Shown here piece after piece: positions 4,674-10,497 of a stretch of 34,356 bases of DNA. Both the position numbers and the translations under genes were made by a program. The stretch spans positions 1 to 34,356 of the forward strand of contig CAYNUZ010000003.1 in the NCBI GenBank assembly GCA_964400385.1, read 5' to 3'. The first letter of the stretch is position 1; each line of letters opens with the position of its first letter. The notes beneath the pieces were generated by a model. The model was not told the origin of the DNA. It searched no databases and saw only the letters and a program-made list of their open reading frames with translations. The stretch comes from an uncultured bacterium (lineage in GTDB: Bacteria; Oederibacteriota; CAKKQC01).

Positions 4674-7600
4674 CTAATTGACCGTGACGCGGAAGCAGGC
4701 ACAGCCGGTTGTCTGGACGCCGGCCATCGGCACGGTCCACCGCAGCCACTTGGTGCCGACCGGCGGCAGCCCGGCGGCGAAGGAGGCGGCCGGCGGCGCC
4801 ACCGCGGAGGTCGAGGTGGACGACGAGACGGTCACCGCCACGCCGTCGGTGCTGCCGCAGTCGAACGGCGCGGTCGTGGCCTCCGGCAGGAACGTCGTCC
4901 CCATGGGGATGGCGTCGGTGATGACGAAACTGAACGCCGAGGCGCTGGAGTAGTTGCTCCAGCAGACCTGGAACCGCACGGTGTCGCCCGAGGCCGCGAT
5001 GGAGAGACCGGGCGTCTTGGTCAGCTTGACGTCCGCGCCGACGACCATCACCGTCGTCAAGCCCAGGATGGAGCCATCCACGGTGTCCATGCCCACGATG
5101 GTCTGGAGCCCCAGCTTGGTCATCGTCACGTTGATGAACATCTTGACCCCGTTGTCGCAGCCGTTGACGCACCCGGCGCCCTTGCACGGCGCGCCCGGGT
5201 CGTTCGAGTCCCACGTGTAGTTGTAGGTGTCCATGGGCGTCCCCTCGATCAGGGCCTTGGAGTCGGTCGAGGTGAACGAGGTGGAGCCGCAGTAGTCGGT
5301 CTTGGTGCTGCCCGCGCTGTCGATGACCAGGACCGTGATCCAGAACGACTGGCCGGCGAAGACGGTCGGGGGGGCGATGATGATGTAGTGGTCGCCGGTG
5401 CGGACGAACGGCGCCGTGAAGAACTTCTCGGTGATCTTCGCCTGGTGGTACTGGGCCACCATGTCGCCCTGGGCGCCGCCCGCGTTCAGCGTGATCCGGT
5501 AGTTGATCCGCGCCCCACTGCCGGGGTTGGTGAAGGGCATGAAGACGATCGCCTGGTCCACGCCGTCGGTCGTGTACCGGGCCGAGTAGCCGCCTCCCGC
5601 CGCGTTGGACGAGTTGATCTGGACGCCCATGCCGATCTTGGGGCAGAACACGTTGATGTACAGCGTGCCCGGCGTGCTCGCCACCGCGTGGTGGAACCAG
5701 AATTCCTGGCCGGCCTGCAATCCATCGGCGGAGTGGAGGTTGGACGCCCCGGACCAGTGGCTGAAGATGTTCCCGCCCGTATTGACCTGGATGGGCCCGC
5801 CGCCCGTCAACTCGATCTTCCAGAGCGTGGCGTAGGTGGTGGACGCCATGGTGGTGTCGTAGCCCCCGCCGTACACGTGCGCATTGCCGCTCACGCCGGC
5901 CAGCGGCGTCAGCCCCGGATTGACCGTGTCCGTCGCCTTCGGCAGCCAGATGCCCGCCGAGCCGGCCATCGTGGTCGGCCACGCGGTGCTCGGGACCTTG
6001 GTGTTCAGCGGCTGGTACTTGTAGACGCGGTACGTGGCCAGCGACCCCATCGAGGTGTTCCCGACGATGCAGTTCGGGGTCAGGCTCGGGTGCGCGATCG
6101 GGTAGAAGCTGCCCAGCCCGACCTGGGACACCAGGTTGCCGTTGTCCCGGTTGGGCACCATCCCGCCGTGGTTGTCGAACGCCCCGCCAATCCCCGGCGC
6201 GCCGAACGTGTGATAACCCTGGTAGATCATGTTCTGCGCGTCGGAGGAGATGATCCGGAAGTGGTAGATGGTGTCCACGGTCGGGCCGTAGGTCCCCTCC
6301 AGCGGCATCCAGCAGCTCTCCGCCGCGATGAACCCGGTCTTGACGTAGTCCCATGAGAGCGTGGCGGGGTTCCACTTGAAGAGGTGCACCGTCGTGTCCA
6401 GGTTCCCGTCAAACACATTGTTCGAATTCATGCTGGTGTTGATGATCACCAACCGGTCCCCGTGTCCGATGGTGTTCAGACCGTTCTGATCCGGACGCAT
6501 CGTCGTGTAGTGCATGAATCCGACGTACGACAGGCTGGTGGACGGCAGATACGTAAACGAGTCGTCGTTCGAATCGGATCCCTCGGTCATGGTGAGCCAC
6601 AGGATCGGCGAGTTCGAGGAGACCTTGTAGAGGAAGTCGAAGGGATAGGTCGGGCAGATATCGTCCCAGATGCCCGGCCAGTACATGGACGGGGCCCGCT
6701 CGATCTTGCACCCGGGGTTCGAAAGCCCGCCGTCGGCCGGATAGCCCCCGACGCACGACCCGACCAGCGTGTTGATGGTCGCGCTCTTCCCGCCGGTCAC
6801 CGCGACGCCGATGCCGGGGTACTCCAGCTTCCGGAACTCGAAGTTCGTGCTCATGTTGAGCGGGAAGAACGTCACGAAGAACCCGGGGCACACGCCCTTG
6901 TCGTCCTCCGAGGCCGCATAACTCGTGTACGAGAAGTAGGTGGTCCGGAGGATGATGATCGCCAGGTGCGTGAAGTTGGCCGGCTTGACCGAGCTGCCCG
7001 TCCCGTTGAAGATCCCCGTCCGCCCTTTTTCCAGCAGCGAGACCCGGTTGATGGCCGTCGAGTTCGCCGGGACGGTGGGCCGCAGTTTCGTCTTGTACCG
7101 CAGGGTCAGCGTGTACTGCGGAGCCATGTCCAGTGTCCAGGTGAGGATCGTCTTCGAACCGGAGAGCACCTTCCCGGCGCTGGCGGCGGCGCATCCGGAC
7201 GGCGTCATCGTCCAGCCCGTGCACGGATCCTCGAGGCCGTACCCCGGACCCCACACGTCCAGCTCCGCGGGGACCGTGTCCCAGACGCTCACGTTCCACC
7301 AGGTCTTCCGCAGCGAGACGTTCTTGAGGAAGATCTCGTACGTCATCTCGTCGTCCGGCACGCCGTAGCCCGCCGCGAACAGGATGTCGTTGCTCCCCAC
7401 CTTCCAGAAGAGGAACCGAGACACCACGGTGTCGGTCGGCGCGCTCACCATCGTCGGACTGCATGAGGCTCCGCCCCAGAACGACTGCGCGACGTTGTTC
7501 AGCCGCTGCCCCTCGGGCGCGGCGACGTCGCCGGATCCCGGCTCGAACAGCTCGCCGTTCCCCCAGTCCACCGTGAGCGAGAAGATGACCGATCCCGTCG

Positions 7601-8495
7601 GACCGCCGGCGGTCGCGAGCGGGCCGGGGATCGTCCACCGGAGGCGGATCGGCGGCCCGATATCGGGATCCCACAACGGGTCGGCGGCGGGCACCGCGCT
7701 GCCGGTGACGTAGTGGGTAAACGGGGGCACACTGTCAATCAGCGTGATGGGGGAAATGGCCGCCGTCCCCGGCCGGCCGTAGTAGATCGTGTACGTGATG
7801 GTGTCGCCCGGCGCCGCGGCGTCCAGGTTGCCCTCCTTGGTGAGGTACCGGATCTCCTTGGGCGTGGTGTCGGTCGTGTCCGCCCACGGCGCCGACCACC
7901 CGCACGTGTCGTACAACCCGCCGGGATTCGCCGGGTCGATGATGTCGTTGAATCCGGGCCCGAGCTCCACGGTCGCGCCGTCGGTGGGACACGACCCGAT
8001 GTCGGTGTACACGTACAGGTTGGGATACCCGAGGCAGGCGGTGGTCGGGTCCGTGCCAAACGGGATCGCCCCGGCCCACGTCCAGCACGGGTAGGTCTGG
8101 ATCCCGATGGTCCACACGCCGGCGTAGGTCATCGTGACCAGGCCCGAGTTTGTGCCGCCGCAGATCAGCTGGAAGTACATCGCCTTGATGTCGCCCGCCG
8201 CGCCCCCGCTGGCCGTGCCGTAGTTCATCATCGTGAGCCCGGTGATCGAGGACGTCGGGCACCCGCACGTGAGGTCGTCGCATTCGCCGATCACGAACGA
8301 GGACTGGGGAACGTGGTACCAGTTGGGGAAGATCGTCTGGTAGTTGGAGAAGGGGGCGATGGGGTTGGCGAGGAAATCCACGAACCCGTCCGCCCGCGCG
8401 GCGTCCGCCGCCAGCACGCACATCGCGATCGCCGCCATCCGGATGAACGCGCCCCCCCGCGCGCCCGGTTCCTGGCGGCACTGCCGGGTCGTCAT
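4674..8495 (-). CDS. 1273-aa secreted cell-surface protein. Architecture: signal peptide, Cys-rich N-domain, three DUF11-type repeat modules, one Ig-like module and a ~560-aa unassigned beta-rich core
   Basis: Signal peptide AFIRMAAIAMCVLAADAARA|DG. DUF11/conserved-repeat-domain signatures at aa ~216-310 (YLTKEGNLDAAAPGDTITYTIYY...LIDSVP), ~360-472 and 1154-1273 (VKLTKTPGLSIAASGDTVRFQVCW...ITDAIPMGTTF). G/C third positions remain high throughout. AGGAG lies 10 nt upstream of the ATG. Confidence 0.9.
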   Translation of the reverse strand: MTTRQCRQEPGARGGAFIRMAAIAMCVLAADAARADGFVDFLANPIAPFSNYQTIFPNWYHVPQSSFVIGECDDLTCGCPTSSITGLTMMNYGTASGGAAGDIKAMYFQLICGGTNSGLVTMTYAGVWTIGIQTYPCWTWAGAIPFGTDPTTACLGYPNLYVYTDIGSCPTDGATVELGPGFNDIIDPANPGGLYDTCGWSAPWADTTDTTPKEIRYLTKEGNLDAAAPGDTITYTIYYGRPGTAAISPITLIDSVPPFTHYVTGSAVPAADPLWDPDIGPPIRLRWTIPGPLATAGGPTGSVIFSLTVDWGNGELFEPGSGDVAAPEGQRLNNVAQSFWGGASCSPTMVSAPTDTVVSRFLFWKVGSNDILFAAGYGVPDDEMTYEIFLKNVSLRKTWWNVSVWDTVPAELDVWGPGYGLEDPCTGWTMTPSGCAAASAGKVLSGSKTILTWTLDMAPQYTLTLRYKTKLRPTVPANSTAINRVSLLEKGRTGIFNGTGSSVKPANFTHLAIIILRTTYFSYTSYAASEDDKGVCPGFFVTFFPLNMSTNFEFRKLEYPGIGVAVTGGKSATINTLVGSCVGGYPADGGLSNPGCKIERAPSMYWPGIWDDICPTYPFDFLYKVSSNSPILWLTMTEGSDSNDDSFTYLPSTSLSYVGFMHYTTMRPDQNGLNTIGHGDRLVIINTSMNSNNVFDGNLDTTVHLFKWNPATLSWDYVKTGFIAAESCWMPLEGTYGPTVDTIYHFRIISSDAQNMIYQGYHTFGAPGIGGAFDNHGGMVPNRDNGNLVSQVGLGSFYPIAHPSLTPNCIVGNTSMGSLATYRVYKYQPLNTKVPSTAWPTTMAGSAGIWLPKATDTVNPGLTPLAGVSGNAHVYGGGYDTTMASTTYATLWKIELTGGGPIQVNTGGNIFSHWSGASNLHSADGLQAGQEFWFHHAVASTPGTLYINVFCPKIGMGVQINSSNAAGGGYSARYTTDGVDQAIVFMPFTNPGSGARINYRITLNAGGAQGDMVAQYHQAKITEKFFTAPFVRTGDHYIIIAPPTVFAGQSFWITVLVIDSAGSTKTDYCGSTSFTSTDSKALIEGTPMDTYNYTWDSNDPGAPCKGAGCVNGCDNGVKMFINVTMTKLGLQTIVGMDTVDGSILGLTTVMVVGADVKLTKTPGLSIAASGDTVRFQVCWSNYSSASAFSFVITDAIPMGTTFLPEATTAPFDCGSTDGVAVTVSSSTSTSAVAPPAASFAAGLPPVGTKWLRWTVPMAGVQTTGCACFRVTVN

Positions 8496-8637: not shown

Positions 8638-9402
8638 TCATCCTCCCTCCGCGTATCCCCAGCGGCGCCGGACCCACCGCTCCAGTCGCCGGAAGGCGAG
8701 GTAATCCACGGTGGACCCGATCGCCACGATGACCAGCATGACCCCGAAGAGGGCCGCGACGTCCCCGGCCTTGCGGCCCTGCAGGAGCAGGAACCCCAGT
8801 CCGCGGTCCACGTCGAGAAGCTCCGCTGCCATGAGGCTCCGCCATGCGAAGTTCCAGCCCTGCTTGGTCCCGGCCAGCATCGCGGGAAAGGCGGCCGGAA
8901 AGATGACCCGCACGTAGACCGCGGCCCCCTGCGCCCCCAGGGTCCGTCCCGCCCGCAGGAAGATCGGCGGGACATTCTGGATCGCGGTCCAGGTCGTGGC
9001 GGCGATGGTCGGCAGCGCACCCATCACCACCACGAACAGGATGGCCGGTTCGCCGCGCTGGAACCAGAGGACGGCCAGGGGCAGCCAGCACACCGACGGG
9101 AGGGTCTGGAGGCCGAAGACGATTCCCCCCAGCGACTCGCTCAACCGGCGGGACCGCGCCACCAGGATGCCGAGCGCCACCCCGGCCACGACGGAAAGCC
9201 CGAACCCGGCCAGGAGCCGGGTAAAGCTGGCGGCCGCGCCCCATCCCAGCGAACCGTTCCGGACCCCGGCGGCGAGGTACGCGGCGACGGCAGCCGGACC
9301 CGGAAACATGGCGGGGGGCCAGAGCCCGGACCCTGCCAGCGCCCACCAGGCCACGAAGAGCGCGGCGGGAACGGCCGCCCGGTGGAGCCCGAGGCGGCTC
9401 AC
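8638..9402 (-). CDS. ABC importer permease, NitT/TauT (SsuC/TauC/ThiX-like) family
   Basis: Multi-TM protein with a binding-protein-dependent permease loop (AAELLDVDRGLGFLLLQG) and overall resemblance to SsuC/TauC. The GTG start overlaps the ATPase stop (GTGA). Confidence 0.9.
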   Translation of the reverse strand: MSRLGLHRAAVPAALFVAWWALAGSGLWPPAMFPGPAAVAAYLAAGVRNGSLGWGAAASFTRLLAGFGLSVVAGVALGILVARSRRLSESLGGIVFGLQTLPSVCWLPLAVLWFQRGEPAILFVVVMGALPTIAATTWTAIQNVPPIFLRAGRTLGAQGAAVYVRVIFPAAFPAMLAGTKQGWNFAWRSLMAAELLDVDRGLGFLLLQGRKAGDVAALFGVMLVIVAIGSTVDYLAFRRLERWVRRRWGYAEGG

Positions 9403-10196
9403 AGCGACTCCTCGGTGCGGGTGACGGGATCCACCCAGGAGGAGATGCCCGCGCGCAGCTCCTTGGCGATCCGGAGCACGGGCGCGTCATCCACGGACCG
9501 GGGACGCGGCAATTCCACCCGGATCTCCCGGGAAATCCGGCCGGGGCGCGCCGACAGCAGGACCACCCGGTCCCCCAGCGCCACCGCCTCCTTCAGGCCG
9601 TGCGTGACGAAGACGAAGGTGCACCAGGTCTGTTCCCAGAGTTCCTGCAGTTCCCCCTGCAGCCGCTCACGCGTGTGGGAGTCCAGCGATGAGAACGGTT
9701 CGTCCATGAGGAGGAACTTCGGCTCCATGGCCAGGCCGCGCGCGAGCGCGACCCGCTGCTTCATCCCGCCGGACAACTGGTGGATCAGGGACCGGCGGTT
9801 CTCCCGCAGGCCGACCAGACCGAGGTACTTGTCCACCCGGTGCTCCGCCTCGGCGGGCGCCAGGTCGAGCCGCTCGAGCCCGAACCGCACGTTGCCCTCG
9901 ACCGTCAGCCACGGGAAGAGGCCGAGATCCTGGAAGAGCATGACCCGTTCCGGGGACGGCCCGGTGACCGCGCGCCCCTCGGTCAGGATTTCGCCCCCGT
10001 CCGGACGGTCGAAACCGGCAATCATCGAAAGGATCGTGGATTTTCCGCACCCGGAGGGTCCGACGATCGTCAGGAACTCGCCCCGGCGGACGGAGAACGA
10101 GATGCCGTCCACGGCGTGCACCTCACCGTCCTCGCCGGCAAACCGCTTGGAGAGGCCCTTCACGTCCAGCACGACCGGTTCCTGGGGCGACGTCAT
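9399..10196 (-). CDS. ABC importer ATP-binding protein, NitT/TauT family
   Basis: Walker A GPSGCGKST, signature LSGGMKQRVALARGL, Walker B FLLMDEPFSSLD, H-loop VTHG. The canonical N-terminus MTSPQEPVVLDVKGLSKRF starts at ATG 10196. The 90 extra residues in the track ORF are low complexity and lie over the riboswitch. Confidence 0.93.
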   Translation of the reverse strand: MTSPQEPVVLDVKGLSKRFAGEDGEVHAVDGISFSVRRGEFLTIVGPSGCGKSTILSMIAGFDRPDGGEILTEGRAVTGPSPERVMLFQDLGLFPWLTVEGNVRFGLERLDLAPAEAEHRVDKYLGLVGLRENRRSLIHQLSGGMKQRVALARGLAMEPKFLLMDEPFSSLDSHTRERLQGELQELWEQTWCTFVFVTHGLKEAVALGDRVVLLSARPGRISREIRVELPRPRSVDDAPVLRIAKELRAGISSWVDPVTRTEESL

Positions 10197-10294
10197 CGCG
10201 GCAGGGTCGAAGCGCACGCGGGACACGGGCGGGATCGGACGGCGGACGGATGGAGGGGGCGGACACGGGGGGACGGCACGGCGGCACGGTTCAC
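10193..10294 (-). CDS. candidate 33-codon leader ORF, translationally coupled to the ABC ATPase
   Basis: GTG 10294 lies 6 nt after a strong SD (AAGGAGG, 10307-10301). The frame reads VNRAAVPSPRVRPLHPSAVRSRPCPACASTLPR, and its TGA shares ATGA with the ATPase ATG. The ATPase has no SD of its own. Confidence 0.4.
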   Translation of the reverse strand: MNRAAVPSPRVRPLHPSAVRSRPCPACASTLPR

Positions 10295-10300
10295 GGGATT
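10201..10300 (-). repeat. degenerate short-repeat tract (CCGTG x5, CCGTCC x3, CCCGTGTCC x2)
   Basis: Counted by hand on the minus strand. The 9-mer CCCGTGTCC occurs at 10269-10261 and 10229-10221, exactly 40 nt apart. Confidence 0.6.
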
Positions 10301-10311
10301 CCTCCTTCGGC

Positions 10312-10426
10312 CTATCGTTCGGGGCGCCTCGCGGCGCTCCCCTGGCGTTCCCACCTCGCCCCCGCGCAGGCCGGAGGCCGGTTGGAGAAGGGTCATCGGG
10401 CCAGTCCCTCGCCTTCCTCTTGATAG
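10312..10426 (-). promoter_or_regulatory. SAM-I (S-box) riboswitch aptamer
   Basis: Minus strand reads CUAUC AAGAG GAAGG C GAGGGA CUGGCCC GAUGA C CCUUC UCCAACC ... GGUGGGAACGCCAG GGGAGCGCC GCGA GGCGCCCC GAAC GAUAG. The invariant S-box blocks are present: AUCAAGAG, GAGGGACUGGCCCGAUGA, CAACC, GGUGnnAAnnCCAG and closing GAUAG. P1, P2 and P4 helices can be drawn by hand. Confidence 0.8.
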
Positions 10427-10468
10427 CGTCGCGTGCCGGGTTGGCTCTCCCGGTCGCCGACTTCAAGA

Positions 10469-10497
10469 ATTACAGCACCCGGGTTGGGGGCTGTCAA
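10469..10497 (-). promoter_or_regulatory. near-consensus sigma70 promoter: TTGACA - 17 nt - TGTAAT with extended -10 TGc
   Basis: Minus strand reads TTGACA (10497-10492), gcccccaacccgggtgc, TGTAAT (10474-10469). This stands out in ~70% GC DNA. The predicted TSS near 10462 gives a ~265-nt leader. Confidence 0.7.

Follow-up and report, generated by a model that had tools for sequence, protein, structure and literature searches.

A SAM-I riboswitch of an uncultured Oederibacteriota bacterium is predicted to gate a 33-codon open reading frame that overlaps an ABC transporter ATPase gene: a variant, seen in one lineage, of a known control logic

We analysed a 34,356-nt stretch of DNA from an uncultured bacterium (GTDB lineage Bacteria; Oederibacteriota; CAKKQC01; contig CAYNUZ010000003.1 of assembly GCA_964400385.1), hereafter called the window, in which an S-adenosylmethionine (SAM)-I or S-box riboswitch stands upstream of the ATPase and permease genes of an ATP-binding cassette (ABC) transporter on the minus strand. 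The only strong Shine-Dalgarno (SD) sequence of the riboswitch leader serves a small upstream open reading frame (uORF), and the ATPase start codon, which lacks an SD, overlaps the uORF stop codon. The first-pass annotation of this DNA had read the arrangement as a relay in which SAM gates the uORF and the ATPase is made by termination-reinitiation. We found that the arrangement varies a known control logic and is limited to one lineage, and that the sequence supports the relay reading in part. The explanation that we favour, at somewhat better than an even chance, is a translational S-box with a remnant ORF that would couple the gated SD to the ATPase, as a module inherited from a porin operon.

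The strong SD of the S-box leader serves a 33-codon ORF

The features of the leader are listed below from 5' to 3', with positions of the window.

10469 to 10497, minus strand: promoter-like site with -35 TTGACA (10497-10492), a 17-nt spacer and -10-like TGTAAT (10474-10469)
10428 to 10461, minus strand: hairpin P0 directly 5' of the aptamer, from the RNAalifold consensus of four leaders, with one compensatory pair
10309 to 10429, minus strand: SAM-I (S-box) aptamer, RF00162; P1 is formed by CUAUC (10426-10422) and GAUAG (10316-10312)
10301 to 10307, minus strand: SD AAGGAGG, 4 nt (GCCG) past the 3' strand of P1; anti-SD duplex -11.7 kcal/mol
10193 to 10294, minus strand: leader ORF of 33 sense codons, from GTG 10294-10292 to TGA 10195-10193
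10197 to 10291, minus strand: C-rich, G-poor tract of 95 nt between GTG and ATG (53% C, 25% G, C/G 2.08), among the 0.4% most skewed stretches of the window
10193 to 10196, minus strand: ATGA stop/start overlap of the NUGA class, formed by TGA 10195-10193 and the ATPase ATG 10196-10194
9399 to 10196, minus strand: NitT/TauT-family ABC ATPase, 265 aa from ATG 10196 (PF00005 at 1.7e-33)

The SD strength was expressed as the hybridisation energy to a generic anti-SD. The SD AAGGAGG is separated by the 6-nt spacer AAUCCC from GTG 10294. This GTG is not in the frame of the ATPase and opens the peptide VNRAAVPSPRVRPLHPSAVRSRPCPACASTLPR. The duplex energy fell from -11.7 kcal/mol before GTG 10294 to +0.4 before ATG 10196, and was -5.2 before GTG 10172 and nearly 0 before two in-frame upstream GTGs. 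Thus, the strong SD belongs to GTG 10294 and not to the ATPase, whose ATG is without an SD and is overlapped by the uORF stop, as the first-pass annotation had stated. Its coordinates for the SD, GTG 10294, the 33 codons and the TGA/ATG 10196 overlap were each verified on the minus strand, and two segments that it had proposed as anti-SDs, CCUCC at 10377-10373 and CCUCCAUC at 10256-10249, are also located where it placed them. No intrinsic terminator was found between the aptamer and the ATPase. Because the S-box SD serves GTG 10294, the ATPase ATG is SD-less and overlaps the uORF stop, and an intrinsic terminator is missing, coupling of the two frames is a reasonable reading.

The length of the ORF by itself is unremarkable, since all three minus-strand frames are open over the leader tract and the probability of no stop in 32 codons, as estimated from the tract composition (7% A, 18% T), is about 0.8. 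Both the 33-codon length and the frame of the ATGA junction are compatible with chance. Judged by position, the SD and the start codon exceed chance, being homologous to those of three related loci described below. In addition, an in-frame ATG at 10396-10394 (minus strand), located in the conserved GAUGA of P2, lengthens the uORF frame to 67 codons (ORF 10193-10396); it lies in aptamer sequence that is structured and conserved, and its use is unlikely. Another start, GTG 10287, belongs to the third frame; the ORF behind it has 54 codons and extends 70 nt into the ATPase.

A separate uORF would be illusory if the ATPase in truth began at GTG 10294, with 33 additional N-terminal residues, and its frame had been split in a C run by an error of one base or by a recent frameshift. 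The tract does contain C5-C6 runs and the ATPase frame is open through the whole leader (ORF 9399-10466). However, the Logan contig L164 (run SRR12313479), which was assembled separately although its reads are possibly shared, matched the window identically over 2612 nt from 10380 downstream, and hence the uORF frame is not one assembler's artefact. Moreover, an extension of this kind is absent from the relatives, ATG 10196 fits the start of the related locus L163 and lies within one residue of that in L161, L170 and L171, and no frame of the tract shows coding-type GC periodicity. We therefore consider the frameshift very improbable.

The leader carries a divergent but conserved SAM-I aptamer

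The default Rfam scan of the window at the gathering threshold gave no match, and a permissive scan matched RF00162 with 42.8 bits (E 1.6e-8), slightly short of the gathering score of 44.4. Among the orthologous aptamers of the loci L161, L170 and L171, which scored 45.2, 40.9 and 40.5 bits, respectively, only that of L161 exceeded the threshold. Since the scores of this subgroup (10429-10309 on the minus strand of the window; L170:4870-4988; L171:339-446) lie under the gathering threshold, standard annotation would miss it. The RNAalifold consensus of the four leaders recovered P0 together with P1-P4, with compensatory changes in 7 of 43 pairs. Several of these are specific to the window and fall in P2, P3 and P4. 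The core motifs, including AUCAAGAG and GAGGGACUGGCCC, are invariant in all four, the P1 has only 5 bp, the additional 5' hairpin P0 is conserved in the subgroup, and both the SD and the start codon are unpaired in the consensus fold. On this comparative evidence the aptamer is real though sub-threshold, a near miss of the kind that is typical of a divergent high-GC subgroup, and SAM binding and repression are predicted for it.

The TTGACA hexamer is also identical in the four S-box leaders (window, L161, L170 and L171). A strict consensus promoter scan did not call the TTGACA/TGTAAT site, from which transcription would presumably start.

The equivalent start opens a porin gene in three related loci

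When genomes and metagenomes were scanned with the ATPase, one close relative was obtained, the Candidatus Coatesbacteria metagenome-assembled genome L001, with 86% ATPase identity. The remaining related loci came from contig look-ups, L170 and L171 having been reached via their porin genes; the ATPase of L161 is 82% identical to that of the window. The S-box core was also sought with a regular expression in L001-L171, about 160 of which are distant ATPase loci, and was present in L161, L170 and L171 only. These three share a common architecture, in which a methyltransferase gene is followed by the TTGACA promoter, the SAM-I aptamer, GAGGAGG or AAGGAGG, 5-6 nt and an ATG. This gated ATG opens a Porin_O_P gene (455-472 aa), behind which lie a binding-protein gene (NMT1) and then the genes for ATPase and permease. 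The porin-gene SDs score -11.4 to -11.8 kcal/mol and occupy the same position as the window SD. The window leader aligns to these three from the -35 box through the start codon, and no similarity was found past the start.

The ATPase starts of L161, L170 and L171 overlap the stop of the binding-protein gene (TGATG or TAATG) and have no well-placed SD. ATPases that are first genes (L001 and L165-L167) have their own SD, of -6.1 to -10.5 kcal/mol. The SD-less ATPase start of the window is, in this light, the signature of a gene that was once translationally coupled to an upstream gene. The binding-protein gene precedes the ATPase in L172 and L173. Because L001 and L165-L167 are likewise without an adjacent one, its absence from the window is normal in this group.

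The uORF was found in none of the other loci. In L161, L170 and L171 the equivalent start is that of the porin gene, and L001, L165-L167 and L173 have a different, terminator-type leader. The conservation of the ORF and the ATGA junction in homologous leaders, which the first-pass annotation had put forward as a check on its proposal, was thus not found; by comparison across loci, the relay arrangement is single-lineage and not conserved. The relay itself stood as plausible, on account of the strong uORF SD, the SD-less ATPase ATG and the missing intrinsic terminator, but not as a conserved design.

Another contig, L163 (950 nt; ATPase 74% identical), starts with GAAGGAGGAA, followed after 5 nt by GTG at the ATPase start, and shares the same 10 SD bases with the window. 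An S-box that directly drives the ATPase was considered as the ancestral state and found no support, as this contig begins at the SD and carries no upstream sequence. In L172, an SD like that of L163 is seen to sit directly behind a binding-protein gene.

A second, non-S-box leader was observed before orthologous ATPase-permease or binding-protein operons, in the same position as the S-box (L001:612-742; L165:3108-3262; L166:3822-3992; L167:3818-3990; L168; L169; L173:1866-1996). It consists of a conserved GGGCUUUAAG..CCAACUUGCyCC, a variable insert and GGrGCUAAAGCGG, followed by an intrinsic terminator, and RNAalifold gave two nested stems with compensatory pairs. No family of Rfam 15 matched it even at E<=10. 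Genes for PAPS reductase, CysN-like, ThiF, PALP and RuBisCO-like proteins lie nearby. It resembles a riboswitch-like sulfur leader of no known class, and seems to have changed places with the S-box in this clade.

A C-rich tract, and not a peptide, is kept behind the S-box

The uORF body coincides with the C-rich tract, which contains CCGTGCCG twice and CCUCC at 10256-10252. The same bias was found directly behind the gated start of the relatives: C/G of the first 96 nt of the three porin genes was 1.88, 2.23 and 2.43, against about 1.0 in the next 96 nt and 0.83-0.93 in the whole genes. Control 5' gene ends from the same loci, four of them signal-peptide-like, had C/G of 0.70-1.31. The C-excess in successive 24-nt bins was 2, 11, 6, 5 and 1 in the window, 3, 10, 1, 7 and 0 in L161, 7, 14, 5, 1 and 1 in L170, and 3, 14, 7, 5 and -2 in L171. 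For the window, L161 and L170, the cumulative C-excess reached its maximum at about nt 110-125. L171 likewise showed no per-bin excess past about nt 96, but its cumulative maximum came later, at nt 294. These profiles argue that the uORF body corresponds in length and composition to a C-rich module that follows the S-box in all four loci. Tandem repeats in 10255-10289 (two exact copies of CCGTGCCG, and a 13-nt unit repeated 2.6 times) suggest that local slippage or duplication shaped the tract.

The encoded peptide showed no sign of being the conserved entity. The GC content of the uORF by codon position is flat (76/76/79), compared with about 71/45/91, 72/55/90 and 52/53/95 in genes of the window, and coding-type periodicity was absent from the tract in every frame. 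BLASTN-short and TBLASTN searches with the tract and the peptide against all 173 loci found no homologue, and none of the three frames of the tract contains a signal-peptide-like hydrophobic segment. By these measures, the uORF peptide is not under protein-type selection. A Cys-sensing leader peptide was also considered and rejected; the two Cys residues are close to the chance expectation of about one Cys codon, as estimated from the base composition of the tract, an internal Met is missing, and the sequence of the peptide is not conserved.

Naked C-rich, G-poor RNA is a classic requirement for the loading of Rho. The composition associated with such loading (C-rich and G-poor over roughly 80 nt or more) is present in the tract, with its 95 nt and C/G of 2.08, and is kept in the four loci. 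This tract, and the Rho-type polarity that it could cause, had been overlooked in the earlier account, as had the weak start GTG 10172.

Proposed mechanism of SD gating and coupling

In the mechanism that we favour, the SD would be free at low SAM, and ribosomes would translate the 33-codon ORF and cover the C-rich tract. After termination at UGA 10193 they would reinitiate on AUG 10196, which has no SD. At high SAM the aptamer, whose P1 ends 4 nt from the SD, would close and make the SD unavailable, so that the ORF would be left untranslated. No terminating ribosome would then reach AUG 10196, and the naked C-rich tract would be free to load Rho. The uORF peptide would have no function, and the ORF would matter only as a conduit for ribosomes.

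Two anti-SD segments had been proposed, and neither was supported. The CCUCC in P3 (10377-10373) is missing from L161, L170 and L171. For the downstream segment, CCUCC is expected from the composition of the tract, and the SD:tract duplex was no better than that of shuffled sequences. A CCUCC does occur at +35 to +44 in four of four loci, for which the chance probability is about 0.5-0.7 anywhere in the tract and about 0.1 in that interval. An unconstrained minimum free energy fold failed to recover the aptamer of the window.

The same tract would also suit a control that works mainly through Rho-type polarity. Here the SD would be masked, the tract would load Rho, and transcription would stop before or within the ATPase, while the ATPase would start at GTG 10172 or AUG 10196 without reinitiation and the ATGA would be incidental. 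Such a control is in keeping with the skew of the 95-nt tract (53% C, 25% G; among the 0.4% most skewed of the window), with a composition that is kept in four loci while sequence and peptide are not, with the leader having no intrinsic terminator, and with GTG 10172, which is the gene caller's pick and has an SD of -5.2 kcal/mol. Riboswitch-Rho coupling is moreover established, for example by Hollands 2012 as cited in PMC11260477. However, relatives have GTC at the codon equivalent to 10172 and conserve EPVV upstream of it, which argues that the longer N-terminus is ancestral, and with AUG 10196 being SD-less, coupling would still be the simplest way to start there. Polarity is also compatible with the favoured mechanism and does not exclude the relay. 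As the main mode of control, we consider it rather unlikely.

A further, tentative proposal, on which we place clearly less weight than on the coupled translational switch as such, takes the C-rich tract as a conserved RNA-level part of the expression platform in this S-box subgroup, acting as a translation-shielded Rho-loading or SD-pairing module. The tract would then have been retained as a 33-codon ORF after the loss of the porin and binding-protein genes because it both brings ribosomes to an ATPase start that has no SD and protects the transcript.

The ATPase and permease genes are intact

Further features downstream of the uORF are as follows.

10170 to 10183, minus strand: alternative ATPase start GTG 10172-10170 with the weak SD AGGAA (10183-10179), -5.2 kcal/mol
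8638 to 9402, minus strand: ABC permease (PF00528 at 8.9e-22), whose GTG overlaps the ATPase stop (GTGA, 9402-9399)

The gene caller product P0001 has 257 aa from GTG 10172 and so loses 8 residues, including the conserved EPVV. The N-terminus from ATG 10196, MTSPQEPVV, aligns with MANHEPVV of L161, L170 and L171 and with VTGTNEPVV of L163. In relatives, the codon equivalent to 10172 is GTC, which is not a start, and EPVV upstream of it is conserved. ATG 10196 coincides with the L163 start position and is at most 1 residue off the L161, L170 and L171 start. Homology thus favours ATG 10196 over GTG 10172, and the gene caller appears to have mis-started the ATPase.

The whole arrangement could also be an inert scar, in which the S-box gates a meaningless ORF, no relay is selected, and the ATPase and permease are weakly or constitutively expressed or are being lost. 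That the uORF is seen in no other locus, that its length and frame are compatible with chance, that its peptide is without coding bias and that the binding-protein gene is missing from the window would all fit with this. On the other hand, the ATPase and permease genes are intact, with full Pfam matches and normal GC by codon position (about 71/45/91 and 72/55/90, respectively), and L001 and L165-L167 have no neighbouring binding-protein gene either. The core of the aptamer is preserved as well, and the compensatory changes in P2, P3 and P4 argue for continued selection on the switch. We hold an inert scar to be improbable.

No porin or binding-protein homologue was found within the 34-kb window, and the substrate-binding partner of the ATPase and permease is presumably encoded elsewhere. 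Located 142 nt downstream of the permease, a 1273-aa protein (4674-8495, minus strand) has only a C-terminal DUF11 match and an unusual GC by codon position of 52/53/95.

The arrangement most likely arose by decay of a porin operon

Both the S-box module and the missing SD of the ATPase speak for an origin in a porin/binding-protein operon. The ancestral operon would have had the order S-box, porin, binding protein, ATPase and permease, and the SD/start module of the window would be inherited from it. The window lineage would then have lost the porin and binding-protein genes, about 2.4 kb, leaving only a C-rich tract of about 100 nt behind the gated start. What was retained now reads as a 33-codon ORF that ends in ATGA on the ATPase start. 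We regard the arrangement as, most likely, a side effect of operon decay in which the coupling was kept.

Points that weigh against the coupled reading

Several observations weigh against the coupled switch and its proposed history. With respect to SD masking, no specific anti-SD element was supported by conservation or duplex energy, and folds in which P1 was imposed, left free or prevented, and which included 30 or 75 nt of downstream sequence, gave no clean and consistent change of SD accessibility in the four leaders. With respect to coupling, the ATGA junction represents one of three possible frames, GTG 10172 with its AGGAA could yield some riboswitch-independent ATPase, and with the architecture seen in only one organism, selection for the relay cannot be demonstrated.

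With respect to the deletion, homology of the 95-nt tract to the 5' ends of the porin genes or the 3' ends of the binding-protein genes of L161, L170 and L171, by which it would be recognised as a remnant, was rejected, since the alignments were no better than dinucleotide shuffles (z 0.2 to 2.0; 17/300 at best). The deletion history consequently rests on synteny and composition. In addition, the ATPase-plus-permease tree, ((L166,(L165,L167)),((L001,window),(L161,L170))), pairs the window with L001, whose leader differs, and the history therefore needs more than one event. As L001 and the outgroup have the terminator-type leader directly before the ATPase, the tree implies that leaders were exchanged at least once in the group, by a path of which the exact course is uncertain.

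Discussion

The control logic closest to that proposed here is known from the ppe2 locus of Mycobacterium tuberculosis, where the SD of uPPE2 is masked by B12, translation of uPPE2 is strictly required for the expression of PPE2, and the tightly overlapping AUGA was shown experimentally to drive termination-reinitiation (Kipkorir et al., NAR 2024, PMC11260477). The first-pass annotation knew of no such relay for S-boxes; it has been shown for this B12 riboswitch and appears to be new only for S-boxes, and our literature search found no paper that ties a bacterial SAM riboswitch to a uORF. As in ppe2, the riboswitch-adjacent SD serves a short upstream ORF whose stop overlaps the main start (AUGA), which in the window is SD-less, and the genome is GC-rich with few intrinsic terminators. 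The dependence of the main ORF on uORF translation is experimental in M. tuberculosis and is predicted here from sequence. The two differ in that the aptamer is SAM-I and not B12, and in that the uORF here is apparently a lineage-specific remnant of a lost first gene.

The riboswitch resembles translational RF00162 S-boxes in its P1-P4 four-way junction and conserved core, its position upstream of a sulfur-related transporter operon, its SD beside P1 and its lack of a terminator. It departs from the usual members in its score just below the gathering threshold, its extra P0, its 5-bp P1, its lack of an identifiable anti-SD, and in gating an ORF that is not the regulated gene. Like Salmonella mgtA/mgtL and Escherichia coli ribB (Hollands et al. 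2012, as cited in PMC11260477), it has a ligand-gated leader followed by a C-rich, G-poor stretch. Translation of a short ORF could decide Rho loading, a role of Rho that in the window is proposed from the composition of the tract.

The laboratory of PMC11260477 has also reported that overlaps of the NUGA/URRUG type are common, that more than half of the downstream ORFs are SD-less, and that termination by Rho may be suppressed where coupling is tight (D'Halluin et al., bioRxiv 10.1101/2022.06.01.494293). The ATGA between uORF and ATPase and the GTGA between ATPase and permease, both with SD-less downstream ORFs, resemble such operon coupling (Huber et al. 2019, as cited in PMC11260477), as does the TGATG or TAATG junction of the binding-protein and ATPase genes in relatives. 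Unlike in operon-internal coupling, the upstream partner in the window is a 33-codon ORF without protein function and not a gene.

For annotation, the locus indicates that the gene closest to a riboswitch SD may be a tiny unannotated ORF; here, in addition, the ATPase was mis-started by the gene caller and the S-box fell just under the Rfam threshold. If the relay works, control by riboswitch, uORF and reinitiation would not be a mycobacterial B12 curiosity, and could arise in other riboswitch classes and phyla by the loss of the first gene from a translationally coupled operon. If the tentative reading of the C-rich tract as part of the expression platform were true, this would be the first S-box riboswitch-uORF-reinitiation relay, and it would document how operon decay can give rise to such relays. 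The conserved C-rich tract is, moreover, a concrete candidate for the means of repression by SD-adjacent, terminator-less S-boxes, and as such is the more general lead.

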